Shown here in pieces: positions 4,381 through 52,902 of a stretch of 64,000 bases of DNA. Positions within the stretch are counted from its first letter, which is position 1; every line of letters starts with the position of its first letter. The stretch comes from Verrucomicrobiia bacterium (lineage in GTDB: Bacteria; Patescibacteriota; Saccharimonadia; Saccharimonadales; JAGQNK01). The translations under genes and the position numbers were made by a program. The notes under the pieces were generated by a model. The model searched no databases. It was not told the origin of the DNA and saw only the letters and a program-made list of their open reading frames with translations. The stretch spans positions 283,346-347,345 of the forward strand of contig DATHJY010000013.1 of the NCBI GenBank assembly GCA_035489575.1, in the 5' to 3' direction.

Positions 4381-4392
4381 TGTCTTATTGTA

Positions 4393-10497: not shown

Positions 10498-10609
10498 ATT
10501 TGTATTTGAAAATTTTTGTTTGGATTACCCCTGTAATAATACAGGGACTCTTGAATATAAAGAGACTATCCCACCACAACTATAGGTGGCTTAAGCACAA
10601 ATAACAACA

Positions 10610-11443: not shown

Positions 11444-11506
11444 AACCGTAAGCAACTTGCTGTAAAGTATGCGATTATTTAGGCCCAAACACAAGAGGTG
11501 CAAACT

Positions 11507-11533
11507 AAAAAAGCCCCCTGACCGGGGGCTTTT
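11507..11533. terminator. Bidirectional intrinsic terminator hairpin downstream of rplU
   Basis: aaaaaaGCCCCCtgaccGGGGGCtttt: a 6-bp GC stem flanked by an A-run and a T-run. Confidence 0.7.
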
Positions 11534-11545
11534 AGGCTATCTTTT

Positions 11546-11854: not shown

Positions 11855-11923
11855 AGTTACTTTCTTCTTAGAAAAATAGTTACCGATGGATCTTAACAGA
11901 TACAGATGGCTTTGTCAAAGGAG

Positions 11924-15429: not shown

Positions 15430-18219
15430 CTAGGAGCAGCCTGTTGTACTGCCGCAACTCGTACAGACATAGCAGCTTCCTGCCTTCTGCGTCTGGTTGC
15501 CACAGTTGTAGCACATGGGCGCAGCGTCATCCTGGTGACCTGTACCGCTGTCAGCCACCGCTTGGCGGGCGGCTTGTATAGGTTGGGGTCGTATGGCCAT
15601 GATTGGCTCCGGCTGGATCTCTACCGCTACTGCCTCATCCGCCCTTGGCGTTCCTACCTCAAGCAAACTTACTTGCTCCTCGGGCATATCGTCCATAGAC
15701 GCCAGTCCCAGTTCAAGCCTATCGTCAAACGACAAGTAGCTCAGGGCTAGGCGCCGGAATATGTAGTCAATGATCGAAGATGCGGTACGAATCTCTGGGT
15801 CATCAGTTATGCCGGCAGGGGCAAAGCTGGTACTCGTAAGTGATCTCACATATGTCTTAAGCGGCACACCATACTGCAGGCCATGACTGACCGATATCGC
15901 AAAGGAATCCATGATACCTAATAGCGTTGAACCGTGCTTTGCAAAGTGTATGAAGACCTCGCCTGGAGTACCATCCTCGTACTCACCAACTGTTACATAG
16001 CCGTGACTGCTTGCAACGGTAAAAGAGAAGGTCTTTGAAGCGCGCACTCTTGGCAGCTCACGACGCACTGCGCCCTTGACTATGATTCGGTCACTGAGCA
16101 CCTCCGCCAAAGATACTGGCTCGTCCTTTTTAGTACCCTCTTTCTTCGCCATAGAGAGTGGTTGCGCAACCTTACAGTTATCGCGGTAGATCGCAACTGC
16201 CTTGAGGCCTAGCCTCCAAGATTCCATGTGCAGCTTCTCAACCTCTTCTACAGTGGCTTCTTCGGGCATGTTAACTGTCTTACTAATTGCGCCAGACAGG
16301 AATGGTTGTACTGCTGACATCATCTTCACGTGGCCCATGTAGTGGATAGGGTTATCACCCATAGAGCAAGCAAACACATCTTTGTGCTCTTCCTTGAGGT
16401 GTGGAGCGCCTATTATTGTTTTCTCTACATCAATATAGCTGATGATATCGTCAACTTCGGACTTGCTGTAGCCGAGTACTTTTAGTGCACGTGGCACTGT
16501 CTGGTTGACGATACTCATCGTGCCGCCACCTACCAGCTTCTTGTGCTTAACAAGACCAAGGTCTGGCTCGATACCAGTTGTATCACAGTCCATCATGAGT
16601 CCAATCGTTCCCGTGGGAGCCAGCACACTTGCTTGCGCATTTCGTACACCGTGGAGCTCACCTAGCTCAACAGCTTCATCCCAGGCGCTGGCGGCAGCAC
16701 TCAGTAGTTCCTCGGAAACCAGGCTGGCGTCAATCTTTGAGACTTCCTCACGATGCATACGGAGCACGTGGAGCATTCCCTCGCGATCTTTATGGAATCC
16801 AGCAAATGGACCGACCCGATTAGCAATCTTTGCGCTCGTGGCATACGCCTGGCCGGTCATAAGGGCCGTTATAGCCGCAGCCTGAGCTCGACCCTCATCA
16901 GAGTCATAGGGCAGGCCTTGAGCCATCAGAAGGGCTCCTAAGTTCGCATAGCCAAGCCCTAGCTCACGATAAGCTCTGGCATTCTTATTGATGCTCTCTG
17001 TTGGATACTCACTGTAACCAACCAATATTTCTTGGGCGGTAAAAATAAGTTCTACCGTATGAATGAAAGACTTGATATCAAAACTTCCGTCGTCATTCAG
17101 ATACCTCAAGAGGTTGATAGATGCCAGGTTACACGCAGAGTTATCCAGGTGCATATATTCACTGCACGGGTTACTGCCATTAATGCGTCCAGCGTTCGGC
17201 GTGGTGTGCCACTTGTTGATAGTCGTGTCGAATTGCATGCCAGGATCGGCACATTCCCAGGCAGATTCAGAGATTTGCCGGAAAAGATCACGAGCCTTTA
17301 CGGTCCTCACTGTCTTGCCGGTAGTCACTGCCTTCAGGTCCCAGTCCTTATCGTTCTCGACTGCTCGCATAAACTCATCAGTGACCCGAACAGAGTTATT
17401 GGCATTTTGGTATTGGACAGAGAATGAGTCTCTACCGTCCAGGTCCATATCGAATCCAGCGTCTCTCAGTACACGAGCTTTACGCTCCTCTATTGCCTTG
17501 GCCCAAATAAACTCCACAATGTCCGGATGATCAGCATTCAAGATAACCATCTTAGCCGCACGACGAGTCTTGCCGCCACTCTTAATAGCACCAGCAGATG
17601 CATCAGCACCCCGCATAAAACTCATGGGGCCAGAGGCAGTACCAGCACTCTTGCCGAGTTCTTCGGCCGACGACCGGATAGAGCTAAGATTGATGCCTGA
17701 TCCCGAGCCACCCTTGAAGATCATTCCCTCTTCTTTGTACCAATTCAGAATGGCGGGCATAGTATCTTCAACGGCCAAGATGAAACAAGCACTTGCCTGC
17801 TGAGCACGCTCAGGTACGCCTATATTGAACCAGACCGGAGAGTTAAAAGCCGCGCGTTGAGTGGCCAAGATATATTTAAGCTCCTCACGGTAGTCTTCTG
17901 CCTCGGCGTCCGACTCAAAGTAACCCTCTTGCATACCCTGCCGAGTCACCGTATCTACTACACGATCGATTAAGTCCTTTAGGGACTTTTCTCGTCCATC
18001 AGTACCCGGAGTACCGGTAAAATATTTTTGGGCAACGATGTTGATAGCGTTCAGGGACCATCCCTCGGGGAAATCAACGTCCTTTTGCTCAAAGACAGGC
18101 TTGCCCGTCATTGGATTCATAATAACCGAATCGCGCTTAACCCATTTGAGCTGATCGTATCCCTTGCTCTTAGGGGGCGTCAATAAGCGCCTCCGACCTA
18201 ATATTGCTATCTGTGCCAT
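15430..18219 (-). CDS. nrdJ: Class II (adenosylcobalamin-dependent) ribonucleotide reductase
   Basis: SNPCSEYMHLDNSACNLASINL active-site region and a C-terminal Cys cluster (CYNCGNQTQKAGSCYVCTSCGSTTGC). I moved the start to the ATG at 18219 (MAQIAILG...) because the 48 upstream codons of the track model look non-coding. Confidence 0.85.
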   Translation of the reverse strand: MAQIAILGRRRLLTPPKSKGYDQLKWVKRDSVIMNPMTGKPVFEQKDVDFPEGWSLNAINIVAQKYFTGTPGTDGREKSLKDLIDRVVDTVTRQGMQEGYFESDAEAEDYREELKYILATQRAAFNSPVWFNIGVPERAQQASACFILAVEDTMPAILNWYKEEGMIFKGGSGSGINLSSIRSSAEELGKSAGTASGPMSFMRGADASAGAIKSGGKTRRAAKMVILNADHPDIVEFIWAKAIEERKARVLRDAGFDMDLDGRDSFSVQYQNANNSVRVTDEFMRAVENDKDWDLKAVTTGKTVRTVKARDLFRQISESAWECADPGMQFDTTINKWHTTPNAGRINGSNPCSEYMHLDNSACNLASINLLRYLNDDGSFDIKSFIHTVELIFTAQEILVGYSEYPTESINKNARAYRELGLGYANLGALLMAQGLPYDSDEGRAQAAAITALMTGQAYATSAKIANRVGPFAGFHKDREGMLHVLRMHREEVSKIDASLVSEELLSAAASAWDEAVELGELHGVRNAQASVLAPTGTIGLMMDCDTTGIEPDLGLVKHKKLVGGGTMSIVNQTVPRALKVLGYSKSEVDDIISYIDVEKTIIGAPHLKEEHKDVFACSMGDNPIHYMGHVKMMSAVQPFLSGAISKTVNMPEEATVEEVEKLHMESWRLGLKAVAIYRDNCKVAQPLSMAKKEGTKKDEPVSLAEVLSDRIIVKGAVRRELPRVRASKTFSFTVASSHGYVTVGEYEDGTPGEVFIHFAKHGSTLLGIMDSFAISVSHGLQYGVPLKTYVRSLTSTSFAPAGITDDPEIRTASSIIDYIFRRLALSYLSFDDRLELGLASMDDMPEEQVSLLEVGTPRADEAVAVEIQPEPIMAIRPQPIQAARQAVADSGTGHQDDAAPMCYNCGNQTQKAGSCYVCTSCGSTTGCS

Positions 18220-18399
18220 ACACCTACCCTCACTTTTACGCGGCCCCAAGAATATGCCGTTCTCTCGGCCACCCATTGTTATATTTTTATTAAGGTTTTT
18301 GTTAGAGTCGTCTCTCGCCTCTACGTTGCTCTCAAACGTCGATTCGATTGATGCTCCCCCCAAAGCCTATGGAGCAGGCTCTAGGGGGAGCCGTCAAGG

Positions 18400-18873
18400 T
18401 TATGCCTTGACAGAACCGACCTTGCGCTCGCGGATTTGCAGAAGTTCTTTCTCAAATCCGGCGATATCTTTGAAGCGACGATATACACTTGCGAACCGCA
18501 CATAGGCTACCTCGTTAAGGGGTGCGAGTCGCTCCATCACCATGTCACCTATTTTTGTACTTGGCATCTCCTGCTCTCCACATGCGTATATATGCTGTTC
18601 GATATCTGCTACCAAACGCTCGAGCTGCAAACTCGTTACAGGAGTTTTCTCGGAAGCCCTATACAACCCAGCAAGTAACTTGTCACGATTAAAGAGTTCA
18701 CGAGTTCCGTTAGTCTTTACTACTATTATCTGAGGACGCTCCAGTCGCTCATAGGTAGTAAATCTATACTGACAGTTTGTGCAAACTCTTCGCCGACGGA
18801 TGGCCTCACCATCTGATACGTCACGAGATTCAATTACCTTTGTCTCCGTTTGCTGGCATTGGCTGCATTTCAT
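18400..18873 (-). CDS. nrdR: Transcriptional repressor NrdR
   Basis: MKCSQCQQTETKVIESRDV...RRRRVCTNCQYRFTTYE is a zinc ribbon followed by an ATP-cone. ATG at 18873; the track model is extended by 43 codons. Confidence 0.9.
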   Translation of the reverse strand: MKCSQCQQTETKVIESRDVSDGEAIRRRRVCTNCQYRFTTYERLERPQIIVVKTNGTRELFNRDKLLAGLYRASEKTPVTSLQLERLVADIEQHIYACGEQEMPSTKIGDMVMERLAPLNEVAYVRFASVYRRFKDIAGFEKELLQIRERKVGSVKA

Positions 18874-33504: not shown

Positions 33505-33973
33505 CCAAATATATCACTCATGATAAGCCATGAATGTAAGATATATCACAGATGATATATTGTAACGATGTCCATGCAGTTGGGCACGGATAGATTATTA
33601 AAGGCAAACAGTGGTGAGTGGTCTCACCAATAACTAGTCAATGTACTTCCCTATGATCATTTCTGATAAAATTATCAGATTTGATCATAGGTCGTAAAAA
33701 GTCAATGGGACTATTAGTACGCTTCGGCTCAATACGTTACCGCACTTTCACCTTGCGCCTATCAAACTGATCGTCTTTCAGTGTCCTCATAGGGAAATCT
33801 TATCTTGGGATCAGTTTCGCGCTTAATATGCTTTCAGCGCTTATCTGCTCCGCACATAGCTACCCAACCATGCCATTGGTATGACAATTGGTACACCAGC
33901 GGTGCGTTCACCCCGGTCCTCTCGTACTAGGGGCAAATTCCCTCAAATTTCCTATCGTCCACAGCGGATATAA

Positions 33974-34007
<34 letters not shown>

Positions 34008-34125
34008 ACGTACCTCTTTAACCGGCGAACAGCCGGACCCTTGGAAGGTGCTCCCCCTCCAGGATGAGATGAGCCGACATCGAGGTGCCAAACAGCGCCG
34101 TCTATGTGAACTATTGGGCGCTATA

Positions 34126-34157
<32 letters not shown>

Positions 34158-34517
34158 GTGCGTCGTCGATCCCACTTTCATATAACCGAAGTTAAATACG
34201 ACGGGTCACTAGCTCCTACTTTCGTATCTGTTTGGCCTGTATGCCTCACAGTCAAGCTGGCTTATGCGCTTGCACTATCACTTCGATTTCCATCCGAAGT
34301 TAGCCAACCTTTGAACGCCTCCGCTACTCTTTAGGAGGCAACCGCCCCAGTTAAACTACCCATCAGACACTGTCCCCAAACCGGATAACGGTTGAGGTAA
34401 GAACACAAATACAATAAGGGTGGTATTTCACCGGTGACTCCACCAAAGCTAGCGCCTTGGTTTCAAAGTCTCCCACCTATGCTACACATATTGCACCTAT
34501 GCCCAATGTCAAACTGT

Positions 34518-34549
<32 letters not shown>

Positions 34550-34844
34550 GCGGACAGACGGCATCTTTACCGTCAATGCACTTTCACCGAGCTCTTCGTT
34601 GAGACAGTGCCCACATCATTACTCCATTCGTGCGGGTCAGAACTTACCTGACAAGGAATTTCGCTACCTTAGGACGGTTATAGTTACCGCCGCCGTTCAC
34701 TGGGGCTTCAGTTCGCACCGTGAAGCGCTCCCCTTAACCTTCCAGCACCGGGCAGGAGTCAGCCCCTATACATCCACTTTCGTGTTAGCAGAGACCTGTG
34801 TTTTTGGTAAACAGTTGCGTGGGCTCCTTAGCTGCGGCCTAGAT

Positions 34845-34995
34845 ATGCCGCAGTGGTTCCAATTGCACTAAAGTACTGTACTCCGAAGAGTACATACCCT
34901 AGTATGATGTCACTTATCTCAATCTTGAGTCGTATCGTAAAAGCCACCGAAGTGGCTATTGTTACTCTATGTTCATCTTAGAAACACTGCGGCAT
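34845..34995 (-). other. 23S rRNA expansion (~150 nt) in the variable helix-63 region
   Basis: It is closed by the perfect 11-bp inverted repeat ATGCCGCAGTG / CACTGCGGCAT. Inside are two UUCG-capped hairpins (CCACuucgGUGG and GUACUCuucgGAGUAC). E. coli has ~75 nt between the flanking conserved blocks; this gene has ~200. Confidence 0.6.
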
Positions 34996-35493
34996 ACCCA
35001 GGCAGACCTTATCCCGAAGTTACGGTCGCTGTATTGCCGAGTTCCTTAACGAAGAATCACTCGTACGCCTTGGTCTTCTCGACCTGAGCACCTGTGTCGG
35101 TTTGCGGTACGGATAGCCATACACATAAGTTATCAAGCTTTTCTAGTCACCACTCTCGCAAGAATCAGCCAATAAAGGCCTCTCATTCGCAGTTGTTACG
35201 CTGCTTAGACGGATATAACCATGAATCCGCTCCTACTAACATGATGCGCACTGATAACAATGTATGACTAGTACGGGAATATTAACCCGTTGTCCATCGC
35301 CTACGCTACGCGCCTCGGCTTAGGACCGACTAACCCTGGGACGATTACCGTGGCCCAGGAAACCTTGCTCTTTCGGCGGGCAGGATTCTCACCTGCCTTG
35401 TGGTTACTCATTCCAGCATTCTCACTTCATACCGCTCCACCGGACCTCACAGTCCGACTTCGATGCAATATGAACGCTCCTCTACCGCTCATG

Positions 35494-35628
35494 CATAGCA
35501 TAAGCAGATCCATGCTTCTGATTTCCGCCATCAGAAAGTCTTTTAGCTCCCTGTCCCTTGGTCAAAATTTCTTTTGGCCGGTGGACCGTTGAGCTCTTAA
35601 GACTGTCGTTGAATCTGCTTATGCTATA
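35494..35628 (-). other. IVS-like insertion (~135 nt) at the tip of 23S helix 45
   Basis: It lies between the conserved blocks CACCGAAG and GGUAGAGGAGCGUUC. It is closed by a perfect 15-bp stem, ATAGCATAAGCAGAT / ATCTGCTTATGCTAT. E. coli has ~28 nt at this position. Confidence 0.65.
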
Positions 35629-36502
35629 CACAAGCCCATATCTTCGGTGCTATGCTTGAGCCCCGTTACATTTTCCGCGCAAGATCTCTTGACGAGTGAG
35701 CTGTTACGCACTCTTTAAATGAATGGCTGCTTCTAAGCCAACATCCTCGTTGTTTAAGAAATCTCACCTCGTTTCCCACTTAGCATAGACTTGGGGACCT
35801 TAGATGATGGTCTGGGCTGTTTCCCTTTCGAGCGCCGAGCTTAGCCCCGACGTTCTAACTGCTGTAGTTCCACTGATAGTATTCGTAGTTTATCAAGGGT
35901 GGGTACCCTTGCGGGCCCCAGTCCGAAACAGAGCTCTACCCCTATCAGCTACCGTACAACGCTAGCCCTAAAGCTATTTCGAGGAGAACCAGCTATCTCC
36001 AAGTTCGATTGGCATTTCACCGCTAACCACAGGTCATCCGGGGGTTTTGCAACACCCTACGGTTCGGTCCTCCACGCAGTTTTACCTGCGCTTCAACCTG
36101 CCCATGGTTAGGTCACTTGGTTTCGGGTCTACTAAACAGTACTATGGTCGGCCTATTCAGCCTCGCTTTCACTACGCGTCCGCCAGATGGCTTACGCTTG
36201 CACTGCTTAAGTAACTCGCTGGATCGTTCTACAAAAAGCACGCCGTCACCCCGAAGGGCTCCGACTCCTTGTACGCACACAAATTCAGGTTCTATTTCAC
36301 TCCCCTTCCGGGGTTCTTTTAACCTTTCCCTCACGGTACTTGTTCTCTATCGATCATAAGATATATTTAGCCTTGGGACGTGGTCGTCCCAGCTTCAGTC
36401 AAGGTTTCACGTGTCCCGACCTACTCGACAAAACAAATATAAGGTTAGCGAAACTTGGCATACCAGGCTTTCACTGTCTATGGCCAGTCTTTCCAGACTA
36501 TT

Positions 36503-36675
36503 CTGCTCGCATCGCTAATTTCTTACCTTATGCAGGTTGGTGATAGCACCTGCTTCCAAAACGGAATTCTAGACTAGGTCTAGTGCTCCGTCTTGGTTGT
36601 TTGTAATGTCACAACCCCTTTTAGATATTCGTCTATCAACTTATCCGTCTGAATTAACAGACAGAAACCTAAAAA
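36503..36675 (-). other. 23S rRNA domain I insertion (~140 nt extra)
   Basis: It lies between GCGAGCGAA..GCCCAAAC and AGUCUGGAAAGACUGGCC. E. coli has ~30 nt there; this gene has ~175. Local hairpins include GGTTGT..ACAACC and CTAGAC..GTCTAG. Confidence 0.5.
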
Positions 36676-37605
36676 GTTTGGGCTCTTGCGGATTCGCTCG
36701 CCACTACTACCGCAATCGTTGTTTACTTTCTATTCCTCGAGGTACTAAGATGTTTCAGTTCCCCCGGTTCCCTTCAACAAGCCTATATATTCAGCTTGAG
36801 ATGACTAGGCATGACCCCAGCCGGATTTCTCCATTCGGACATCTTCGGTTCATAGCTTAGTAAGCAGCTCCCCGAAGCTTTTCGCAGCTTCTCACGTCCT
36901 TCATCGGTATCTTATGTCAAGGCATCCCTTGTGTGCGCTTGAGTAACTTTTTACGATTTCATCCGTTGGGCAAAGCCCAATGAATGATTAGTGCCTGCGG
37001 GACAAAGTCCTGCAGACTCTAAAAGTACAATTGACTAGTTATTGGTATTACCAATAACCTAGTGCAGTTTTACTGCACTAGTATGAAATGTGATAACTGC
37101 TTATGCAGCTTTAAACATTTCATGCCGTTTGCCTTTAATCTCAAAATTTGAATCTAATTGTTAAGATACGACTCAAGACGGCCCACAAAACTATCTTGTT
37201 TCTTAGCACTGTAACTTGAGTTTACGCTAAAAGCTTGGCGGTTTATTACGAGTGCCTCGTGCCTAAACTCAAGCAGCCCAAGCATTTTAGCACTAATAAC
37301 AGAGGCGGTCAACCCTCTGGTGCTGTAAAAGAAGCTACAGTTTATACTCTGTTCTCATCAGTTGTGACGATCTAGGGCTTAACCGACACCGTAGCGAATA
37401 GTAGCTAAAAGGCCCACCTCTATCATTAGCACCCCGTATTGCTAGAGTATGACCCTAGCCGTCAATACAATCCCACTAGACATAGCTTATAGATGCCCTA
37501 CCAATGGCAGGTCATAATAGATACAGTTAAACTATCTCTATGCGTCAAAAACTGTGTATGGTCTTTTGCAAAGAAAAGAGGCGTCTAGTAGACGCCTCTT
37601 TTCTT

Positions 37606-44468: not shown

Positions 44469-45803
44469 ATGTTCAAAAAACTTCTTAGCAACCTACCTTT
44501 CAACCCTAGTCTTATTGGCCAGGTATCTTTCTATGCCAAGAGGATGCATCGCGAGGCCGCTCTGCGCCGCATGGGCGTTGGTATGATGGTTCTTGCTATC
44601 TTGGTACAAGTATTTGCCGTGGTATCACCCCCCGAACCAACCTTGGCTGAGTCCAATAACGATATTGTTAAGGGTGGTTTTACGACACGTGACGAGGCGG
44701 TTAACCACTGCCGGAGCAATACTAAAGATTTTGCCAATATCCTAGTTCACTATGGAGTCACCTGCGAAGCCCTCGGGAGAGGCGTCACTAAAACTATCTC
44801 CACGACAGACAAACGGCTCGACTCCCTAGGAAGAGTTGCTCAGGGGCCAACTATAGCGCGCACCGGAAAGCCGACCGAGGAGTATCCGATCACAATCAAT
44901 GGCACCGAATACTACATGAAAAATCTATGGGCATGGGACTCTGGTTCGTCTTCGAGCTATAAGGTTTTGGAAGTAAAAAACGCTCAAAACCAGACGATTA
45001 TGATCATGTTCAGCTGCGGCAATATTGTAACCATCGACAAGTACACACCTCCTCCCCCACCCGAAAAACCAAAGCCAGAGAAACCAAAGGATGTTTGTAC
45101 TAACATTCCTGGTGTCCAAACAACCAAGGAAGAATGCGATACATGCCCGAATGTGCCGGGCACACAGAGCAATAAGAGCGAGTGCTATCCTTGCCCCAAG
45201 GCCAAGGCCACAAACACCACGACTGCCTGCCTAGAACTCAGTAAATCTGCCTCCAATCAAACGCAAAAGATCCAGAATGCTGATAATACAGTCGCCCTAG
45301 CAGATGATGTAATCGTCTACACATTGCGGGTTCAAAATACTGGCACCCAGGCGGTCAAAGGCTTTGTGATAGAAGAAGACCTTTCCGACACGCTTGAATA
45401 CGCCACCGCAACAGACCTATCTGGGGGGCAGCTTGACGCTCAGGGGGTGGTAAGTTGGCCCAAGCAAGACATCGCTGCCGGGACGATCGTAGAGAAGCAC
45501 ATTACGGTAAGGGTTAAGAATCCTATTCCTCAGACACCTGCTTCGGCCTCGGACCCTGGTTCGTTCAACCTTGTTATGACCAATGTATATTACGGAACGG
45601 CCGTAAACATCAAGCTTCCTGCTAGTAGCAGCAAGTCTGTAGAAATGGCCGTAACCAGTATGCCAAATACCGGACCCGGCACTACTCTGGCTATCGGGTT
45701 TATTGTGTTAACGTTTATGGGCTACTTTTTAGCTCGAAGCACATTGCTAGCCAAAGAAGTGGACCTAGTGCGCGCCGACTATACGTCAGTGGAAGGATCG
45801 TAA
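44469..45803 (+). CDS. Surface protein with an N-terminal TM/signal, a Pro-rich linker, Cys-repeat motifs and an LPXTG-like (MPNTG) C-terminal anchor
   Basis: 444 aa. PPPPPEKPKPEKPK; tandem VCTNIPGVQTTKEEC / TCPNVPGTQSNKSEC; the C-terminus SMPNTGPGTTLAIGFIVLTFMGYFLAR is followed by a 21-aa tail. Confidence 0.65.
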   Translation: MFKKLLSNLPFNPSLIGQVSFYAKRMHREAALRRMGVGMMVLAILVQVFAVVSPPEPTLAESNNDIVKGGFTTRDEAVNHCRSNTKDFANILVHYGVTCEALGRGVTKTISTTDKRLDSLGRVAQGPTIARTGKPTEEYPITINGTEYYMKNLWAWDSGSSSSYKVLEVKNAQNQTIMIMFSCGNIVTIDKYTPPPPPEKPKPEKPKDVCTNIPGVQTTKEECDTCPNVPGTQSNKSECYPCPKAKATNTTTACLELSKSASNQTQKIQNADNTVALADDVIVYTLRVQNTGTQAVKGFVIEEDLSDTLEYATATDLSGGQLDAQGVVSWPKQDIAAGTIVEKHITVRVKNPIPQTPASASDPGSFNLVMTNVYYGTAVNIKLPASSSKSVEMAVTSMPNTGPGTTLAIGFIVLTFMGYFLARSTLLAKEVDLVRADYTSVEGS

Positions 45804-45805
45804 AT

Positions 45806-46357
45806 ATGTCAGAAACCCCTCAAAATCACTCTATAGAAAAGAAAAGAATCGAAGCCGTGGAAGCTGCGCCCGCTCCCGAAAAGCACCGTTCAAAAGAGGC
45901 CTCCACCGGCGTTTCCGTCGAGCATGATCACAATATCGATAAAATCCAGGCCAGCATTCACAAAGAGGCTGTTAGCGGCAAAGATGTCGCCATCGAGCAC
46001 CATCGCTCCGAGTCACAACCGGCGCTGGGATTGCAACGTGAGCTAAAAGCAACAGCCTACCAAAAGACACTCCATAAAGTACAAGCCAGACTAAATCCCA
46101 CCCAGCGGTCCTTTAGCAAAGTAATCCACCAGCCGCTTGTCGAGTCCGTCAGTGAAGCGAGTGCTAAGACCGTTGCCCGTCCCTCTGGCATACTCGGTGG
46201 TGGACTTGTAGCACTTATAGGAAGCGGCGGACTCCTTTATATGGCAAAGCACTACGGATTTAAGTACAACTACTTTGTCTTCATTGCTCTCTTTTTGGCA
46301 GGATTCTTGGTTGGATCAGCTATCGAGCTGTCCGTTCGAGCCGTTAAGCGCCGGTAA
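45806..46357 (+). CDS. Hypothetical membrane protein (183 aa, two C-terminal TM helices)
   Basis: ORF track. It starts 2 nt after the previous stop. The C-terminus is GILGGGLVALIGSGGLLYMA ... YFVFIALFLAGFLVGSAIEL. Confidence 0.55.
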   Translation: MSETPQNHSIEKKRIEAVEAAPAPEKHRSKEASTGVSVEHDHNIDKIQASIHKEAVSGKDVAIEHHRSESQPALGLQRELKATAYQKTLHKVQARLNPTQRSFSKVIHQPLVESVSEASAKTVARPSGILGGGLVALIGSGGLLYMAKHYGFKYNYFVFIALFLAGFLVGSAIELSVRAVKRR

Positions 46358-46370
46358 CATACTGGCTACC

Positions 46371-49300
46371 CTATTTGTCTGGTACACCGCGGACGTGTAG
46401 TGTACCCTCTGTATCTATATAAATAGTATCGTCGTTATTACTATCCTTCTTGGGGTTCAGCTGAGCAGCTGCGAGCTGAGCCACATCCTCATCATCGTCC
46501 GCATCCTGGATCTGGGGTTGATCGGTCTGAGGCGGCGCGGGTGCATCAAGCGCATCGCGAGATAGCGTACCAGGTGTTTGGCCACCGGTAGAATTGTTTT
46601 TTGGCTGTGGTTCAACAGGAGCCGGAGGAATAGACGTACCCTTATTCACGGGCGGGAAACCTGGCTCTGGCGGACCCTTGGAAATTTGATGGGCTGTGTT
46701 GGCTTTTTTAGGTGGCTCCATGGGCCTTTCGATGGCCGTAGGCGACACTGGAGCGACTTGTGGCACCCGTGGCTTAACCGGAGCTTGTGGCAGCTGCTGT
46801 GGTGGTGCGAGATGGGACGCTGGTGGTGCTGGAGTGTTTGACCCAACGGGTGCGGGGCTCGTGCGGCGTTTCGCAAGCCAATCGTCCAGGAACGAGCCGG
46901 AACCCGGAGCTGCAGCAGGACGAGGTGGCGCTGGACGGCCACCAGCAGCGCGTGCCGGTAAGCCACCAGCCGGAGGAGGCCCAAGAGGGCCAGGCTGACC
47001 AAATGCCGGTCGAGGCGATTCTTTAGTTGCAAGGCGGGCAAATATATCTGAGGCCACAGCCGATCTTGGTCGTCCGAACTTTGCTGCCGATAGCTGCTTA
47101 AGTGCAAGTGCAAGCTGCGGGTTGGCGTTACCAAGCGGCGGTAGAGTTGCCATGCTAAAGGGTTGTGTTGGCACACCGTTAATGAGCGTCCGGACAACAG
47201 TATTGGCATTGGGCACCCGCAGCAAGTCTTCGCCATCAAAAAATGGCTGGAAGTATCGAGTCAGGGAATCAACGTCGTTCTGCCCCACCCTAAAGGCTAC
47301 AATGCTACCCATGTTGCCAAATACGGCATCACGAATTTCTTCCGAGAGCTGAGTCGTGAACTGGTTGGCAACAATAAGGTTTAGGTGATACTTTCGGGCT
47401 TCGGACATGATGGTGGCAAAAGAATCTGTTGAGAAGTTTTGGAACTCATCAACATAGAGACAAAAGTCCTTTCGTTCGCTCTCTGGGACGTTAGCCCTGC
47501 TCATTGCCGCAGCTTGGAATTTCATAACAAAGATCATACCGAGCAGCTTAGAGTTCAGATCGCCTGTTTTACCCTTGCTCAAGTTAACGAGCAGGATTTT
47601 CTTGTTGTCCATAATTTCACGCAAATTAAACGAGCTCTTACTCTGACCGATAATGTTGCGCATCATCTCGTTAGCCATGAACGCACCGAACTTGCTCACG
47701 AACCAACCCAAGACTTCACTCTTGTGATAATCACTCGTTTGAGCCATTTCTTTATTCCAGAAATCTAGAACAATTTGATCTTTTACGTGCTTCAGTAAAT
47801 CTTTGGCATATTTATTGTCAGTAAACACCTTTGGTATATCAATGAAAGTACCACCGTCAGGATTTGCCATGACCGTCTTGGCGGCCATTCTAAACCAGTG
47901 CTCGTATCGGGGGCCGATAATACCCTGGCGCTGAGGGTCGTACAGCTTATAAAGCATATTAATTGCCTCTTGAATGAGAAAGTCCTGCTGATCAACTGAG
48001 TCAAACTCGAAAAGGTTGAGCCCCATAGGATAATCCATATCTGCTGGGCTAAAGTAGACGACGTCTTCTGTTCGTTCACGCGGCACCATTGATAATAGTT
48101 TTTCGGCAGTATCACCATGCGGGTCAACAAAGGCAAACCCTTCGCCACTCAGCATGTCCTGCAAGGCTAAGTTCTCCAGAAAGGTAGACTTACCAGTACC
48201 CGTCTGACCGACGACATACATATGACGCTGACGATCTTGCAGAGCTATTCTGATTGGCTTTTTTGCCCCTCTGAAAATATTGTAGCCCAGTAATAAACCC
48301 TCGTCAGATACATTACGGGGGCCATCAACTTGTTTTGACGACTGCCGTTCTAGCTGTGACGTTGGGGTGCTACGTTGATCCGGGAAGTGAAACAATGTTG
48401 CGAGCTCTACAGAGTTAAGGATGCTCTGGTTGGAATCCTGTGGGAAAAACCGCATGATATAGGCTGTCGCGAACTGTTCGATGTCTCTAGCGGGTGTGAA
48501 CTTAAAGCCATTCTTGCCAGGAGCGTCGAAAAGCGAGAAGGTGGCAATGATATTCCCAAGGATAGCCTGCGAGCGCTGGGATATATTAGAAGACGCTATG
48601 ACTCGTATTAGTACCTCATAACCCGGATAGCGTGTCTTGTCATCTATAGAGTCAAGAACGGCCTGCTCAAGACTAGACAGCTCTGGCTTGTCGGGTCCCC
48701 CTTTGTCCTTGTCTTCTGGCGGTTTCGTAAAGGCTACTGCCAGCTGCTTCATCCAAAAAGCAACGTTATTAATAAACCCGCTCTTACTATCTTTGCCCTT
48801 CCGTTTTTTGCCAGCCATGGCGGAGGCCGTCTTTCCCCACTCAGGGTTTGCGGGTCGCATCAAGAATTGGATACCGACTCCATCGTCTTTCTCTAGTGTG
48901 GATAAGGCGTTTAGCAGCGAAACCATGGCATCACGCTTGATGTCCTGGTAGGTTGCAATGGGATACGCGTAGTTTTCTTTCAGCGTAAACTCACCACCTG
49001 TTGTCCCACTGATCTTTCCGACTGGACTAAATATATTGTGCTCAGACGCCTCTTCCAGCCGAGCGGCAGGATAGGCACTGATAACTGCCTGTGTCACCAA
49101 ATCGACAAGCGCCACCGGAACGGCTGCATAAAAATGCACGAAGCCCTTGCTACCGACTATCTCAAAAGTAAAGTGTCGTTGGCCATAAAATTTACTTTTA
49201 AAGCCCTTCTGAAGTGAACTAGCGATGATGTTATAAAGGATCTGAGCTTTTGATATATTTTCATCGGCTATATCGCGTATGTCCCTACTGCCTAGATCGA

Positions 49301-49466
49301 TATCGTCACTTTGTGGTGGCAGGTGGATATAAAGCGGTACCATTTTAAGGCCACGCTCAAAATTTTTCTGTTCCCTAAATATTTTGCGAACCTGCATAAA
49401 TACGATGGGAGCAGTTAAAGACCCTACGGCCAGAAAGATTATAAATATTGTCAGTAGGGCGCCCAT
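46371..49466 (-). CDS. Membrane-anchored P-loop ATPase of the VirD4/TraD/TraG coupling-protein / HerA-FtsK type, with a ~270-aa Pro/Ala-rich C-terminal tail
   Basis: N-terminal TM helix (MGALLTIFIIFLAVGSLTAPIVF). Walker A is MYVVGQTGTGKST. FVDPHGD follows, and Walker B is LYVDEFQNF. The low-complexity tail (PPPAGGLPARAAGGRPAPPRPAAAPG...) is encoded at 46371-~47200. Confidence 0.7.
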   Translation of the reverse strand: MGALLTIFIIFLAVGSLTAPIVFMQVRKIFREQKNFERGLKMVPLYIHLPPQSDDIDLGSRDIRDIADENISKAQILYNIIASSLQKGFKSKFYGQRHFTFEIVGSKGFVHFYAAVPVALVDLVTQAVISAYPAARLEEASEHNIFSPVGKISGTTGGEFTLKENYAYPIATYQDIKRDAMVSLLNALSTLEKDDGVGIQFLMRPANPEWGKTASAMAGKKRKGKDSKSGFINNVAFWMKQLAVAFTKPPEDKDKGGPDKPELSSLEQAVLDSIDDKTRYPGYEVLIRVIASSNISQRSQAILGNIIATFSLFDAPGKNGFKFTPARDIEQFATAYIMRFFPQDSNQSILNSVELATLFHFPDQRSTPTSQLERQSSKQVDGPRNVSDEGLLLGYNIFRGAKKPIRIALQDRQRHMYVVGQTGTGKSTFLENLALQDMLSGEGFAFVDPHGDTAEKLLSMVPRERTEDVVYFSPADMDYPMGLNLFEFDSVDQQDFLIQEAINMLYKLYDPQRQGIIGPRYEHWFRMAAKTVMANPDGGTFIDIPKVFTDNKYAKDLLKHVKDQIVLDFWNKEMAQTSDYHKSEVLGWFVSKFGAFMANEMMRNIIGQSKSSFNLREIMDNKKILLVNLSKGKTGDLNSKLLGMIFVMKFQAAAMSRANVPESERKDFCLYVDEFQNFSTDSFATIMSEARKYHLNLIVANQFTTQLSEEIRDAVFGNMGSIVAFRVGQNDVDSLTRYFQPFFDGEDLLRVPNANTVVRTLINGVPTQPFSMATLPPLGNANPQLALALKQLSAAKFGRPRSAVASDIFARLATKESPRPAFGQPGPLGPPPAGGLPARAAGGRPAPPRPAAAPGSGSFLDDWLAKRRTSPAPVGSNTPAPPASHLAPPQQLPQAPVKPRVPQVAPVSPTAIERPMEPPKKANTAHQISKGPPEPGFPPVNKGTSIPPAPVEPQPKNNSTGGQTPGTLSRDALDAPAPPQTDQPQIQDADDDEDVAQLAAAQLNPKKDSNNDDTIYIDTEGTLHVRGVPDK

Positions 49467-49469
49467 GAT

Positions 49470-49901
49470 TTATTCGTCACTCAACTTCAAGTCTTTGTTA
49501 TAGCGCTTCTTTAAATAGTCAGACTTTAGTTTATTAAGCTCTTTGGTCTGAGTGTACGGATCCTGGCTAGTATGCGCTACGATCTGCTTTGCCTTCTCTA
49601 CCCACTCTTTCTCAATCAAGTCTGTGTCATCGGCCATCATTGGCACAGTGGCAGCTGGAGAGGTAATTCCTGTGGGTAAGATGCCACCCTGACCTTGTGG
49701 TGGTGCCATGGCCGCAATGGGAGCCGGATCGGGGCTTGCGGAAGGGTCTGGGGCGCCTTGCGCTTTTTCAACCGCAGCCGCCACCGCAGTCTCATGCACT
49801 GAGTCGTGTGGCGTGGTGCGCTCTTGAGCGTCCTTCTGCTCTTGGGTCGGCAGAGGCATCATTAAATCAGCTGGATCTTGTTCTTGGGAATCGGGCTTCA
49901 T
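49470..49901 (-). CDS. Hypothetical protein (143 aa): Pro/Ala-rich N-terminal half, conserved-looking helical C-terminus
   Basis: ORF track. It ends 3 nt before the ATPase start. The C-terminus is DLIEKEWVEKAKQIVAHTSQDPYTQTKELNKLKSDYLKKRYNKD. Confidence 0.55.
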   Translation of the reverse strand: MKPDSQEQDPADLMMPLPTQEQKDAQERTTPHDSVHETAVAAAVEKAQGAPDPSASPDPAPIAAMAPPQGQGGILPTGITSPAATVPMMADDTDLIEKEWVEKAKQIVAHTSQDPYTQTKELNKLKSDYLKKRYNKDLKLSDE

Positions 49902-49949
49902 AACTACGCGTAGTATAACAAAACACGACCCTTACAAACAGATGAGAAT

Positions 49950-50282
49950 CTATAAATCTATCTTACGCACATAGAAGGTTACGCTAGCTAGAAGCGCAAG
50001 CAATATTAAAAGGTCCTTGATAGATAGCTGATGCAGAGACTGCAGAATGATTAGCAAGACTATAAGTCCGCTCACTATAAGTGAAAGGTACTTTTTTTTC
50101 GGAGCGCTCACTGGGGCCGGCTGAAAGCCCACACTGGCGAATTGATATACCGTAACAGCCAACAAAATAAATGGAATAACCAGTAATACAAGCGGTAACC
50201 TGTACGGATCTGTCGAGAACATAAAAGTGAGCAACAAGATCGGTGTTGCACATAGATATATAATTTTTTTACCCTGTTTCAT
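49950..50282 (-). CDS. Small 4-TM membrane protein (110 aa), first gene of the ATPase operon
   Basis: Four hydrophobic segments (IIYLCATPILLLTFMF, LPLVLLVIPFILLAVTVYQFA, YLSLIVSGLIVLLIILQSL, LLILLALLASVTFYV). I recognise no family motif. Confidence 0.55.
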   Translation of the reverse strand: MKQGKKIIYLCATPILLLTFMFSTDPYRLPLVLLVIPFILLAVTVYQFASVGFQPAPVSAPKKKYLSLIVSGLIVLLIILQSLHQLSIKDLLILLALLASVTFYVRKIDL

Positions 50283-50523
50283 GCGCTCTCATTTCGCTTA
50301 TGTCCGACATGGGCAAAAAACACCGCCAACTTAAAAGCAGTGCTCTTATTCTTGGAGCCGGGACGGTAAATCCGCTCTTTATTGTAGAATATTTAGCGCT
50401 TACCGTCCTTGGCTTTGACTGACCGCTCTCATTACGAGAGCGATATCGGTTTTACCCGTAGATGTAAGTTTTTGTTTTTCAATCTTACGCTAACAATATA
50501 CTACTTTGATTCATAAATGTCAA
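50283..50523 (-). promoter_or_regulatory. Sigma-70-type promoter plus a ~205-nt structured 5' leader of the 4-TM/ATPase operon
   Basis: In the RNA sense: TTGACA (50518-50523), 17 nt, TATATT (50495-50500). The leader contains the hairpins CGCTCTC/GAGAGCG (50424-50442) and GGACGGTAA/TTACCGTCC (50361-50408). Confidence 0.55.
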
Positions 50524-51147
50524 TACCCAGCAGTTGTTTTATTTACTATACATATACTGTTAACAGGAGTTGAGATACTCAGAAGTTTTACAAAAATACT
50601 GTTGTTAAAAAGTTATCATTTTGAATGTAGCTAGTACTTGAAGCCTTACAAAAACTCGTGCAGATTCGAATATGAACCGTGTGGCTAGCGATTTCTAGCC
50701 AGCCAGCCTTGATCTTGACGGCCCAGTAGTGGATGGTTGCACATCGCAGCCCACACTAATCGTCCCAAACAAAACATTTTCCGACGTAGCAAACAGCCTC
50801 AGCCAGTGCAAAAAGACCAGGAAACCTAGCTAGCAATGAGATTTAAGGTGCAAGCCATACGTCGCTCTAACCAAGACTTCTTCGGGTTCAAGAGATTTGA
50901 GCCAATATGACTATAGCCGCCTACACGACCAAGGCCTGGTGTCAGTGTACATGGGAGGTGGCGGTGTTGCGCGTGACGAGCCCTCCTCTGCTACCCAGCA
51001 AGAAAGCTTACTATGGCATCTCCGTGCGACATATCTTTTCGGTTCGCAGCCAGGCTTTTTGAGTGAGTGTGAGGCTTTGTCGCCCTGCCCGCCTGGCAAG
51101 TTATGCACAGGCAGAAAAATATAGTAGGAAAATTAGCATGAGAACTA

Positions 51148-51176
51148 TTGACAGTGCCTTTGTGGCCGGCTAATAT
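51148..51176 (+). promoter_or_regulatory. Near-consensus sigma-70 promoter
   Basis: TTGACA (51148-51153), a 17-nt spacer, then TAATAT (51171-51176). Confidence 0.6.
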
Positions 51177-51182
51177 ATGCGT

Positions 51183-51349
51183 AGCACTTGAATAAAAAAA
51201 GTGCTCAAAAACAAAAACGAATCTGAAACAACGGCTTCTCGCAAGCCGTTGTTCCATAAAGACAACGGGTTCATTCATAAAAAATCCTGACAAAATAAAC
51301 GACAAAAACTTATCAGTAAACGATCTCCCGGCGGGAGATCGTTTTCATT
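51183..51349 (+). ncRNA. Candidate ~167-nt small RNA or terminator-controlled leader of the comM-like gene (unclassified)
   Basis: It is bounded by the promoter at 51148-51176 and a strong terminator, AAACGATCTCCCggcGGGAGATCGTTTT (51318-51345). It contains an 11-bp hairpin AACAACGGCTTctcgcAAGCCGTTGTT, with an alternative partner ACAACGGG downstream. Confidence 0.35.
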
Positions 51350-51381
51350 CTGGAGAGTTTTTTGGCACAATAGTCAACGTC

Positions 51382-52902
51382 ATGGGGGCAACAGTTAAAA
51401 GCATCTTAGATGCTGGCAATCAGGCGGTTTTGATAGACGTGGAATGTCACGTCTCTAATGGCCTGCCCACTATTCTGATTGTTGGATTTGCAAATAAAGC
51501 AGTCGACGAGTCAAAGGAAAGAATCCGGGGCGCATTCTCTAGCGCCAAGCTAGAACTACCCCGCAAGCGCATTATCATAAACCTCGCCCCGGCCGATGTG
51601 CCCAAGAACAGCACAAGTTTTGACCTTCCTATGGTCGCGTCTATATTGTTAGCAAGCGGACAAGTCGCCCAGCCGATACCGCACACAACGGCACTCATTG
51701 GAGAGCTAGGACTAGATGGAAACATCCGTGCAGTACGTGGCATCATCGGCAAACTGTTGGGTGGCCGTCAGAAAGGACTCAAGACCTTTTATATCCCTCG
51801 AGATAACTTGCAGCAGGCCATGCTAGTACCTGGGCTCGAGCTTGTGCCGGTCGCAACAGTCAGAGAACTTTACTTAGACTTGACGGATACAGTTTCCCTA
51901 AAACGTGTTCAATCTGGAGCAAAGATTCTGGCCACCGATAAAACCAATGTGCACTCTATTGATTTTGGTGATGTTGTCGGCCAAGCGCGAGCCAAGCGAG
52001 CACTGGAGATTGCAGCAGCAGGTGGGCACAATATATTCATGAATGGCGCACCCGGATCTGGTAAAAGCATGTTAGCCAAGGCACTGCCAACAATATTGCC
52101 AGACATGACAACCGAGGAGATGCTCGAGACTACTCACGTTCATAGCTTAACGAGCAAGGAGTACGAACAAATCATTACACAGCGCCCCTTTCGGTCGCCC
52201 CACCATAGCTCAAGTATGATTTCCATTATGGGTGGCGGGCAAAACCCTCGACCAGGCGAAATAAGCCTAGCTCATAACGGTGTATTATTTTTTGATGAAT
52301 TCCCAGAGTTCAATCGTGCCGTCCTGGAGGGACTGCGGCAACCACTAGAAGATCGAAAAGTGTCCATTGCGCGCGCAAGAGATACCGTTGAATTCCCTGC
52401 CCACTTCGTTCTTGTAGCTACGAGTAACCCATGTCCATGTGGCTATTACGGGTCTTCTAAGACCTGCATATGCCCACCCTATCAGATAGCTAAGTATCGC
52501 CAAAAGGTGTCGGGCCCAATCATAGACAGAATAGATTTGTACATCGATGTGGACGAGGTTAAGCACGAGCAACTTCTACGTGACAGCAGTCAAGAATCAA
52601 GCAGCTCCATCCAGAAACGAGTCGCCAAGGCACGGAAGCGGCAGCTAGATAGATACAGATCCGTGTCTAAACAAAATGCGACCCTAACCAACCGAGACAT
52701 AAAAGGTTTTCTTACCATACAGCCAGAAGCAGAAGAGCTCCTTAACCGAGCAGCCCAAAAGCTGGATATTTCTGCCAGAAGTTACATGAAAATCCTCAAG
52801 GTCGCGCAGACAATAGCAGACCTGTCGGCACAATCCAGCATACAGCCAGAGCACGTCAGTGAAGCTCTGCAGTATAGGCGACCGAGCAATCAAACTTTTT
52901 GA
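51382..52902 (+). CDS. comM: YifB/ComM-family Mg-chelatase-like AAA+ ATPase
   Basis: 506 aa. N-terminal Lon-like domain, GAPGSGKSMLAK, GVLFFDEFPEF, and the SNPCPCGYYG zinc motif. Confidence 0.85.
   Translation: MGATVKSILDAGNQAVLIDVECHVSNGLPTILIVGFANKAVDESKERIRGAFSSAKLELPRKRIIINLAPADVPKNSTSFDLPMVASILLASGQVAQPIPHTTALIGELGLDGNIRAVRGIIGKLLGGRQKGLKTFYIPRDNLQQAMLVPGLELVPVATVRELYLDLTDTVSLKRVQSGAKILATDKTNVHSIDFGDVVGQARAKRALEIAAAGGHNIFMNGAPGSGKSMLAKALPTILPDMTTEEMLETTHVHSLTSKEYEQIITQRPFRSPHHSSSMISIMGGGQNPRPGEISLAHNGVLFFDEFPEFNRAVLEGLRQPLEDRKVSIARARDTVEFPAHFVLVATSNPCPCGYYGSSKTCICPPYQIAKYRQKVSGPIIDRIDLYIDVDEVKHEQLLRDSSQESSSSIQKRVAKARKRQLDRYRSVSKQNATLTNRDIKGFLTIQPEAEELLNRAAQKLDISARSYMKILKVAQTIADLSAQSSIQPEHVSEALQYRRPSNQTF

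Follow-up and report, generated by a model that had tools for sequence, protein, structure and literature searches.

The 64,000-nt stretch of DNA analyzed here, referred to in its full length as the window, carries a minus-strand operon of three open reading frames (ORFs). These encode a 110-aa protein with four transmembrane (TM) segments (the 4-TM gene, 49950–50282), a 143-aa protein (the partner, 49470–49901), and a 1031-aa ATPase (46371–49466), and 3 bases separate the partner stop codon from the ATPase ATG. The ATPase is a P-loop translocase of the VirD4/TraD class, chromosomal, catalytically intact, and membrane-anchored. The operon is a core-chromosome operon of Saccharibacteria, and its conserved heart is the partner–ATPase gene pair. 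In structural models, the ATPase looks like a VirD4-class motor carrying a VirB4-type N-terminal domain behind its membrane anchor. A leader RNA precedes the 4-TM gene and is a real, previously uncatalogued candidate for a cis-regulatory RNA of ~110 nt. An earlier description of this DNA, made from its letters alone (the sequence-only reading), had reported the three minus-strand ORFs, the 3-nt gap, the 110-aa protein with four TM segments, and the 143-aa protein with a Pro-rich N-terminal half and conserved C-terminus, all of which were confirmed.

Sequence and family of the ATPase

Comparison of the ATPase with Pfam gave a match to T4SS-DNA_transf (PF02534) of 35 bits, against a cut-off of 20.1, over residues 412–710 and profile positions 43–347 of 468. 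The other families that the sequence-only reading had named as candidates stayed below their cut-offs, namely TraG-D_C (20.7 vs. 22), TrwB_AAD_bind (15 vs. 20.5), DUF87/HerA (22.2 vs. 23.2), and FtsK_SpoIIIE (16.5 vs. 24). NCBIfam matches were to conjugative TraD/VirD4-like proteins, CD1115, and archaeal CedD/CedB, all far below cut-off. TrwB and DotL were the top sequence matches in the PDB, whether the query was the single sequence or a profile of 22 members. The profile search gave no VirB4 chain at E ≤ 0.01, and the ATPase had no sequence match to the Pfam VirB4 family, CagE_TrbE_VirB.

The catalytic residues do not vary among 22 diverse relatives, of which the most distant has 31% identity. 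They comprise G420, G423, and K426 of the Walker A motif (GQTGTGKS; 48183–48209, minus strand) and D673 and E674 of the Walker B motif (DEFQNF; 47433–47459, minus strand). Together with the T4SS-DNA_transf match, this bears out the earlier assignment to the VirD4/TraD class. The same P-loop motor with Walker A and Walker B motifs is present in the type IV coupling proteins (T4CPs) TrwB of R388, TraD of F, DotL/IcmO, and Cagβ.

The gene family is known and annotated, and is not categorically new. More than 5,000 close homologs have a precomputed Pfam match to PF26449 (DUF8128) on the N-terminal half; the match is present in the identical database protein (P0001) and in nearly all homologs, and the NCBI product name of the identical protein is already type IV coupling protein. 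An exhaustive search of the family yielded 21,161 representatives at 50% identity, and full-length relatives, containing both DUF8128 and the motor, reach down to ~33% identity. A survey by Quinonero-Coronel et al. (2025) found 5,713 VirD4-like T4CP homologs in 2,918 of 3,035 genomes of Patescibacteria, the candidate phyla radiation (CPR) (PMC12102498). The term "orphan", used in the sequence-only reading, is incompatible with these data. Its statement that the operon is uncharacterized holds, in that there is no experimental characterization of it as a machine.

The family occurs across all Patescibacteria classes. Relatives in a one-genome-per-species collection belong to Saccharibacteria, Woesebacteria, Daviesbacteria, Levybacteria, Curtissbacteria, Berkelbacteria, Magasanikbacteria, Shapirobacteria, Roizmanbacteria, and Paceibacterota. 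Other labels appear on a few records; the ones that were checked (L010 and L016) have the synteny of the Saccharibacteria type, and are therefore regarded as mis-binned. The metagenome-assembled genome (MAG) containing the identical protein is likewise labeled Verrucomicrobiae, while its gene content and all relatives are those of Saccharibacteria. A Berkelbacteria contig (L054) contains two DUF8128-ATPase paralogs, at 9923–12490 and 15624–18551, ~3 kb apart on the same strand.

Predicted structure of the ATPase

The AlphaFold2 (AF2) model of the ATPase, built from a diverse alignment, had a mean pLDDT of 85. The ORF, the Pfam and PDB sequence matches, and this model agree on a gene for an ATPase of the T4CP (VirD4/TrwB) class whose N-domain is DUF8128. 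The domains, all encoded on the minus strand, are an N-terminal TM helix (residues ~4–26; 49389–49457), which is part of a long helix spanning residues 2–40 in the model and is found in homologs such as L001, an α/β DUF8128 domain (residues ~41–388; 48303–49346), and a RecA-like nucleotide-binding domain (residues 391–789; 47100–48296). The last of these contains an all-α insert (residues ~490–606; 47649–47999), predicted as a run of seven helices that separates the Walker A region from the Walker B region, in the same position as the all-α domain of TrwB. In a Foldseek search, the C-terminal half matched TrwB with TM-scores of 0.60–0.70 (target-normalised) and a root-mean-square deviation (rmsd) of ~4.5–7 Å, followed by Cagβ, HerA, and VirB4.

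The N-terminal half gave a different result. When modeled alone, the DUF8128 domain had a pLDDT of 83 and a pTM of 0.82, and the top 14 Foldseek matches in the PDB were all VirB4/TrwK chains of R388, with E values from 1.4e-6 to 7.6e-4. The matches that followed were to unrelated ferredoxin-like folds, with E values above 3e-3. The full-length model aligned with VirB4 over ~860 columns. Based on these models, DUF8128 is predicted to have a VirB4-N-domain-like fold, which is not proven homology.

The predicted protein shares features with both ATPase families. As in VirB4 (TrwK of R388; PDB 7O43 and 8RTD), an N-domain is followed by a RecA-like C-domain, and the TM helix recalls the VirB3 that is fused to the N-terminus of some VirB4 proteins. 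Unlike VirB4, the motor carries the T4CP-type all-α insert and has no VirB4 sequence match. The ATPase and T4CPs both have an N-terminal membrane anchor, consisting of one TM helix here and usually two in T4CPs. In contrast to T4CPs, it contains a module of ~350 aa resembling the VirB4 N-domain between anchor and motor. The predicted VirB4-like N-domain on a VirD4-type motor suggests a way of docking to the membrane complex, and bears on how the two ATPase families diverged.

Membrane topology and C-terminal tail

The ATPase contains one hydrophobic helix only, which is followed at once by the Lys/Arg-rich stretch RKIFREQKNFERGLK. This helix had been noted in the sequence-only reading and is kept in homologs. 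The NCBI gene call for the identical protein (1008 aa) begins at M24, which removes the TM helix (lost part, 49397–49466). The sequence predicts a topology with the N-terminus outside and the C-terminus inside.

The nucleotide-binding domain is followed by a low-complexity tail rich in Pro, Ala, Gly, and Ser (residues ~796–1031; 46374–47081, minus strand), delimited by composition and by a survey of tail lengths. Its composition (20% Pro, 14% Ala, 8% Gly) agrees with the earlier description; its length is ~235 residues by the composition survey, rather than the ~270 given there. Tails of Saccharibacteria homologs have 146–323+ aa, whereas those of other CPR classes have 13–34 aa, and the long tail is confined to Saccharibacteria among the family members surveyed.

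The tails are otherwise unalignable, and most of those sampled in Saccharibacteria are closed by the motif DTI[YF]ID.[DE]G[TN]L. In the window, this recurrent short motif is DDTIYIDTEGTLHV (46392–46433, minus strand), and the tail of L001 ends in DTIQIDQDGTLRLR. The C-terminal tails of TraD and DotL recruit or dock partners, and by analogy the C-terminal extension of the ATPase could do the same. A conserved peptide on a flexible tether fits docking, and we infer that the motif (DTIYIDxEGTL) is a candidate docking peptide. The suggestion of a docking arm in the sequence-only reading survives, strengthened by this terminal motif.

The same reading had also proposed an orphan minimal translocation module, whose Pro-rich tail would pass through the cell wall to a host cell. 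The tight packing of the three genes and the lack of T4SS genes in the window agree with this proposal. However, because the ATPase must be cytoplasmic and is preceded by a single TM helix and a Lys/Arg stretch, the whole tail would lie in the cytoplasm, and it could therefore not span the wall. The predicted topology thus already contradicts the proposal, and the tail is missing in all members surveyed outside Saccharibacteria. The family is also huge and already annotated, and a type IV secretion system (T4SS) is encoded elsewhere in the lineage. We consider such a module very improbable.

Partner and 4-TM proteins

The partner is an obligatory small soluble partner of the ATPase in Saccharibacteria. 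It lies directly upstream of the ATPase gene in all 35 of the Saccharibacteria loci in which it is recognizable, with gaps usually between −4 and +25 nt; the same holds for 22 of 22 metagenome loci with enough sequence. Its assignment in the window (49470–49901, minus strand) rests on this adjacency and on the conserved C-terminal part. The N-terminal half is Pro-rich and probably disordered, and is followed by a conserved helical region of ~55 aa (DLIEKEWVxKAKxIVxxTxxDPYxQ...ADYLKKRY), in which W24, P39, Y53, and R57 are invariant.

The partner matched no Pfam family. The only PDB match of the partner profile covered 36 residues in a helical part of the YoeB toxin (E = 4e-4), with a sub-threshold match to TIGR02116. 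A relationship to YoeB was rejected; the catalytic part of YoeB is absent, and the match is regarded as a chance helix-Asp-Pro similarity. In other CPR classes, the ATPase gene is also preceded by a small, tightly coupled ORF, belonging to different families (an RWLAEW type and an EQEAKIKTDKI type). A common origin of the three upstream families was likewise rejected, with hhalign probabilities below 1%, and they are alike in position only.

The 4-TM gene (49950–50282, minus strand) is the first gene 3′ of the leader RNA, and encodes four hydrophobic segments in 110 aa. It was identified as an ORF and with an iterated hidden Markov model (HMM), which recovered it in 40 Saccharibacteria loci, ~450–600 nt upstream of the ATPase gene. 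In three loci (L036, L040, and L041), which form one Saccharibacteria sublineage, pheS, pheT, and a gene for a 477-aa membrane protein lie between the 4-TM gene and the partner–ATPase pair (positions ~3800–9700 of these loci). The three-gene unit described earlier therefore holds for the partner–ATPase pair, whereas the 4-TM gene is loosely linked. Scans of ten 4-TM members gave no consistent Pfam family, only scattered membrane-protein noise, and a DUF2178 identity of the Southlakia 4-TM protein (a ProtNLM guess) was unsupported by these inconsistent scans.

Genomic context

The window is part of the core chromosome of a Saccharibacteria-type organism. It contains an rRNA operon, RNase P, and tRNAs, together with ftsZ/ftsA, nrdJ/nrdR, ileS, infB, priA, gyrB/gyrA, comM, infC-rpmI-rplT, thrS, and miaA, and its base composition is even throughout. 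The synteny of the ATPase gene with gyrBA, comM, and the rRNA operon is conserved in Saccharibacteria. As described in the sequence-only reading, the operon is flanked by a gene for an adhesin-like surface protein, which has DUF11 repeats and an LPXTG-like end, and by comM (YifB).

The families with names closest to the ATPase are conjugative coupling proteins (TraD, VirD4, CD1115), as would be expected if the operon were left over from a conjugative or integrative mobile element. Its place between comM and gyrB is, however, the same across Saccharibacteria down to ~50% protein identity, which effectively refutes this origin. The composition is uniform, there is no relaxase, integrase, or repeat, the catalytic site is intact, and the ortholog discussed below is essential. 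A mobile remnant is the least credible of the explanations considered, and the earlier statement that the operon is not a mobile element stands with the conserved synteny.

Two genes convergent with the operon lie downstream of the ATPase gene, and their link to the operon is uncertain. A 183-aa protein with two C-terminal TM segments is encoded at 45806–46357 (plus strand), adjacent to the ATPase gene in 26 loci. The DUF11-repeat surface protein is encoded at 44469–45803 (plus strand), ends in MPNTGPG and a TM segment, matches Pfam DUF11 at 37 bits, and is adjacent in ~28 loci. Overall, the two genes stay beside the ATPase gene in 26–29 Saccharibacteria loci, and in L040 and L041 both follow the ATPase gene on its own strand. 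Neither was present in the ATPase flanks inspected in other CPR classes.

This neighborhood, which persists even where the genes are flipped, and the VirB4-like fold of the N-domain could point to a VirB4-like assembly ATPase for a surface structure made of the DUF11/LPXTG-like adhesin and the 183-aa membrane protein. Such a role is improbable: the orthologs of both genes are non-essential while that of the ATPase is essential, both are missing from the ATPase flanks in other CPR classes, and the motor is T4CP-type by sequence and not VirB4-type. An LPXTG-like, sortase-type protein would also be exported via Sec.

Essentiality of the syntenic counterparts in Southlakia

Transposon insertion sequencing (Tn-seq) calls for Ca. 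Southlakia epibionticum ML1 (Southlakia), a cultured relative, were taken from Table S1 of Wang et al. (2023), and gene annotations from Table S2 (PMC10633639). Genes are called there as essential (ES), growth defect (GD), or non-essential (NE) at P0, P1, and P2, where essential refers to a requirement in host co-culture. The SEML1_0138–0148 region matches the window gene for gene, with comM, the 4-TM gene, the partner, the ATPase, the gene of the 183-aa type, the DUF11 gene, gyrB, gyrA, and 16S in shared order and orientation; in Southlakia, gyrA is followed by a PAP2 gene and 16S rRNA. From the 4-TM gene to the DUF11 gene, gene lengths are 354, 420, 3060, 582, and 1608 nt in Southlakia vs. 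333, 432, 3096, 552, and 1335 nt in the window. The P-loop domain covers residues 381–800 in SEML1_0142 vs. 391–789 in the window ATPase.

The counterpart of the ATPase, SEML1_0142 (3060 nt), is called ES at all three points, with 114 insertions in the input and 11, 11, and 9 retained (PMC10633639). The partner counterpart, SEML1_0141 (420 nt), is called GD, ES, and ES, with 9 insertions in the input and 0 retained, and the 4-TM counterpart, SEML1_0140 (354 nt), is called NE, GD, and GD (PMC10633639). SEML1_0138 (YifB/ComM), SEML1_0143 (582 nt, counterpart of the 183-aa gene), and SEML1_0144 (DUF11) are each called NE throughout, and the gyrB and gyrA counterparts, SEML1_0145 and SEML1_0146, are essential (PMC10633639). 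The main text of this study does not mention SEML1_0140–0142 (PMC10633639).

Southlakia also contains an essential T4SS gene cluster, SEML1_0006–0019 (VirB4/VirB6/PrgI), described as having neither a coupling protein nor a relaxase that can be recognized, in which SEML1_0008 is a separate, canonical VirB4 (PMC10633639). At the level of the lineage, this cluster makes doubtful the earlier notion of a minimal module that works without a T4SS. Table S2 lists two T4CP-like genes, SEML1_0142 and SEML1_0293, and the latter is called NE, NE, and NE (PMC10633639). According to the 2025 survey, the T4CP homolog of Southlakia is non-essential and possibly exapted (PMC12102498). This remark probably fits SEML1_0293, not SEML1_0142.

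The paralog class represented by SEML1_0293 resembles the window ATPase in having a ~360–400-aa N-terminal region followed by a T4CP motor. It includes two Saccharibacteria-labeled loci (L068 and L082; ~40% identity), in which the DUF8128 region is covered too. It differs in its strong TrwB_AAD_bind and TraG-D_C matches, in being dispensable, and, in L082, in lacking a small upstream partner. Saccharibacteria thus contain two ATPase paralog classes, of which the window class and its partner are scored essential in the published Tn-seq data and the other dispensable, and this changes the candidate gene for the T4SS motor.

A role of the ATPase as an FtsK substitute or chromosome-segregation pump was rejected, because Southlakia has a genuine, separate, and essential FtsK of its own (SEML1_0096; PMC10633639).

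Proposed function of the partner–ATPase pair

We tentatively favor the reading that the ATPase is a T4SS-associated hexameric substrate-receptor motor, which may dock via its N-domain and TM helix and recruit cargo via the partner and the tail peptide. An ATP-driven hexamer would sit at the inner face of the membrane, where it would act as substrate receptor and energizer for a monoderm-type T4SS encoded elsewhere on the Saccharibacteria chromosome. The VirB4-like N-domain and TM helix would attach the motor to the membrane complex, comparable to the VirB4 N-domain with VirB3 and VirB8. The partner and the terminal motif of the tail would bring in cargo or adaptors, comparable to the C-terminal tails of TraD and DotL. 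If true, the partner–ATPase unit serves a T4SS that is believed to draw resources out of host bacteria. The Patescibacteria, ultra-small and parasitic, account for much of bacterial diversity, and tapping host cells is how they live.

Several observations weigh against this reading. As the sequence-only reading had noted, the window lacks T4SS and conjugation genes: no T4SS, relaxase, or pilin Pfam family was found in the other scanned ORFs of at least 80 aa of the 64-kb window. No T4SS genes were found within the ±10 kb flanks of the distant related loci inspected. T4CPs are associated with T4SS and/or relaxase genes, and this association was found neither in the window nor in the inspected flanks; the ATPase instead has a core-chromosome context and a family-specific small partner, and differs from T4CPs in these respects. 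The evidence for a T4SS elsewhere comes from the lineage (Southlakia), not from this genome, and SEML1_0142 is taken as the ortholog of the window ATPase by synteny and gene lengths, not by sequence. The Tn-seq calls of the two small genes could result from polarity onto the ATPase gene. For SEML1_0142, the essential call is already made at the first time point; most T4SS genes begin as GD and turn ES only later, a difference that hints at a role partly different from that of the T4SS. The superposition of DUF8128 on VirB4 is moderate (TMq 0.35–0.47, rmsd ~10 Å) and involves a predicted structure, and a comparison of ten diverse N-domains with Pfam at E ≤ 10 gave only noise in place of a sequence link to VirB4. 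Of the 5,713 CPR T4CP homologs, only 148 are near virB4, and VirB4 is present in 2,417 of 3,035 genomes, fewer than the 2,918 with T4CP homologs (PMC12102498).

A serious alternative, which we regard as somewhat less likely, is the following. The partner–ATPase pair, perhaps with the 4-TM protein as a membrane partner, may be an autonomous, exapted translocase that serves a core Patescibacteria process independently of the T4SS, such as movement of DNA/RNA or protein across or along the membrane in the uptake of host material, or envelope biogenesis. The family is found in 96% of CPR genomes and VirB4 in 80%, with rare proximity of the two, and the survey authors themselves raise exaptation (PMC12102498). 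The housekeeping synteny with gyrBA, comM, and the rRNA operon, and the essential call from the first time point, unlike most T4SS genes, agree with such a role. The operon is also divergent from comM, which encodes a transformation-associated helicase, and the leaders of the two share a rare 12-mer; the weak NCBIfam matches to CedD and CedB are to archaeal DNA-import ATPases.

However, an autonomous translocase would have no evident channel-forming partner: the 4-TM protein has only 110 aa, its counterpart is called NE, GD, and GD, and its gene is separated from the ATPase gene in some lineages. comM is dispensable in Southlakia, and incomplete MAGs may account for much of the gap between 96% and 80%. 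By class, the motor is a T4CP, and characterized T4CPs work with a T4SS channel.

As far as searched, the literature contains no description of a VirB4-like N-domain on a VirD4-type motor, of the obligatory partner, or of the tail motif. The same holds, as far as searched, for the split into essential and dispensable paralogs and for the leader RNA.

Leader RNA

The region 5′ of the 4-TM gene contains a σ70-type promoter-like site (TTGACA-17 nt-TATATT; 50495–50523, minus strand) with 11/12 matches, the best in 46000–51500, and its TTGAC box is conserved in related loci. It is followed on the same strand by a 5′ hairpin (GUAAG...CUUAC; 50464–50488) with the loop motif AAAAACAAAAAC, supported by the fold and by relatives, and by the leader RNA core (50347–50454), which matches the covariance model with 113.6 bits. 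The core consists of the helix CGCUCUC/GAGAGCG, an invariant junction GGUCAGUC, and a long bulged helix GGACGGUAAGCGCU / AGCGGAUUUACCGUCC. The minimum free energy (MFE) fold places a terminator-like hairpin and U-run (50310–50347, minus strand) between the core and the 4-TM start codon. The folding of the window leader has an MFE z of −5.0. These data, with the covariation described below, support the strong promoter and structured leader of the operon that the sequence-only reading had called.

An RNAalifold analysis of a MAFFT alignment of 15 loci gave 19 base pairs, 9 of which show compensatory changes on both sides; across alignments, 9–12 of the 19 are compensatory. In the alignment, 95% of cells are paired, vs. 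31–52% when the partners are slid by one to three columns, and the covariation score was reached by 0/500 shuffles. Model-fitted alignments of 21 and 36 sequences gave the same picture. nhmmer and the covariance model found exactly one leader copy per locus, always just 5′ of the 4-TM gene, and more distant Saccharibacteria have weaker matches at the same position.

A pattern scan of metagenomes yielded 80 loci, of which the covariance model confirmed 36 and discarded 44 as chance matches. Where these 36 independent loci had enough downstream sequence, the 4-TM gene was present 3′ of the leader in 31/31, the partner in 22/22, and the ATPase gene in 17/17.

No family of Rfam 15 (4,227 families) reached its gathering score in the window, and the leader had no match at E ≤ 1. 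Two chance-level matches at E ≤ 1 were found in 49800–51500, both outside the leader. tmRNA, tRNA, SRP, and 6S were rejected as identities of the leader, with negative results from ARAGORN and Rfam.

Like riboswitches and attenuators, the leader lies between the promoter and the first ORF, folds compactly into several helices, and contains invariant junction and bulge nucleotides. It differs from them in lying outside the Rfam 15 families and in the lack of a terminator in some loci. It shows the traits of a riboswitch class, namely a conserved structured 5′ leader, covariation, and consistent downstream genes, and is a candidate binder of a small molecule or protein. The pairing of the terminator-like hairpin is kept with a different stem sequence in L001, L007, L010, L014, L006, and L013, and the hairpin is absent in L004 and L016. 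It is a candidate expression platform; since some loci lack it, control may work differently from one locus to another. Transcription would proceed from the strong promoter through the ~110-nt structured leader to the terminator hairpin, which is present in many genomes. The leader would act as an attenuator, either riboswitch-like or protein-binding, and so gate the 4-TM gene and thereby the partner and ATPase.

The leader is a widespread candidate for a new class of cis-regulatory RNA in a phylum whose regulation is little understood, and its ligand, once found, could show the signal that controls an essential envelope machine. A farther-reaching version of the favored reading, which we think unlikely as a whole, would make the partner–ATPase pair the missing essential coupling and energizing unit of the Patescibacteria T4SS, an evolutionary hybrid and living intermediate in the split of VirB4 and VirD4, and the target of a riboswitch of a new class, whose ligand would be a metabolite derived from the host or tied to starvation.

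The sequence preceding the 4-TM start codon (AAUGAGAGCGC-AUG; 50283–50300, minus strand) repeats the 3′ strand of the first helix of the leader (AAUGAGAGCGG; 50430–50444, minus strand). Alternative pairing of AAUGAGAGCGC with the 5′ strand of the first helix could hide the ribosome-binding region. L001 does not conserve the repeat, which may be a coincidence.

Intergenic region between the operon and comM

A second conserved non-coding island (51165–51265) is present between the operon promoter and comM, and is common to at least 15 Saccharibacteria loci. It contains a hairpin (GGAACAACGGCUU / AGCCGUUGUU) with a covarying stem and the invariant loop UGCGAG(A/G)A; behind this hairpin come a T/A-rich run and another small hairpin. 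The island lies between a plus-strand promoter-like site (51148–51176) and the comM start codon. From this position, it may be the 5′ leader of comM.

Exactly two copies of the 12-mer AAAAACAAAAAC are present in the 64 kb, at 50468–50479 (minus strand) and 51207–51218 (plus strand), in the same intergenic region. Both copies are shortly 3′ of a promoter-like site and are conserved in relatives. In a control for chance, 15 of 100 shuffles had at least two matches. The 12-mer may be a shared operator or RNA-binding site linking comM and the ATPase operon, and is a candidate for such a site.

Positions 50560–51140 comprise ~580 nt with no ORF and little conservation relative to a relative at 66% protein identity, which is unusual for a reduced genome. 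The same position in Southlakia has 2.85 kb of apparently non-coding DNA with only a 150-nt hypothetical gene, compared with 1.1 kb in the window.

Other features of the window

The 23S rRNA match (33693–36953, minus strand) covers 3,261 nt for a 2,925-position model. The ~340 extra bases could be an insertion or intron-like element; intron-like elements are known in CPR rRNAs.

The left end of the window contains two giant tandem ORFs on the minus strand. The first (1–~3650) has at least 1,215 aa and runs off the left edge, and the second (4393–10497) has 2,034 aa and no Pfam match. A non-coding left end was rejected, as its ORF-poor look reflects the giant minus-strand ORF that crosses the edge. 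Both ORFs probably encode giant surface proteins.

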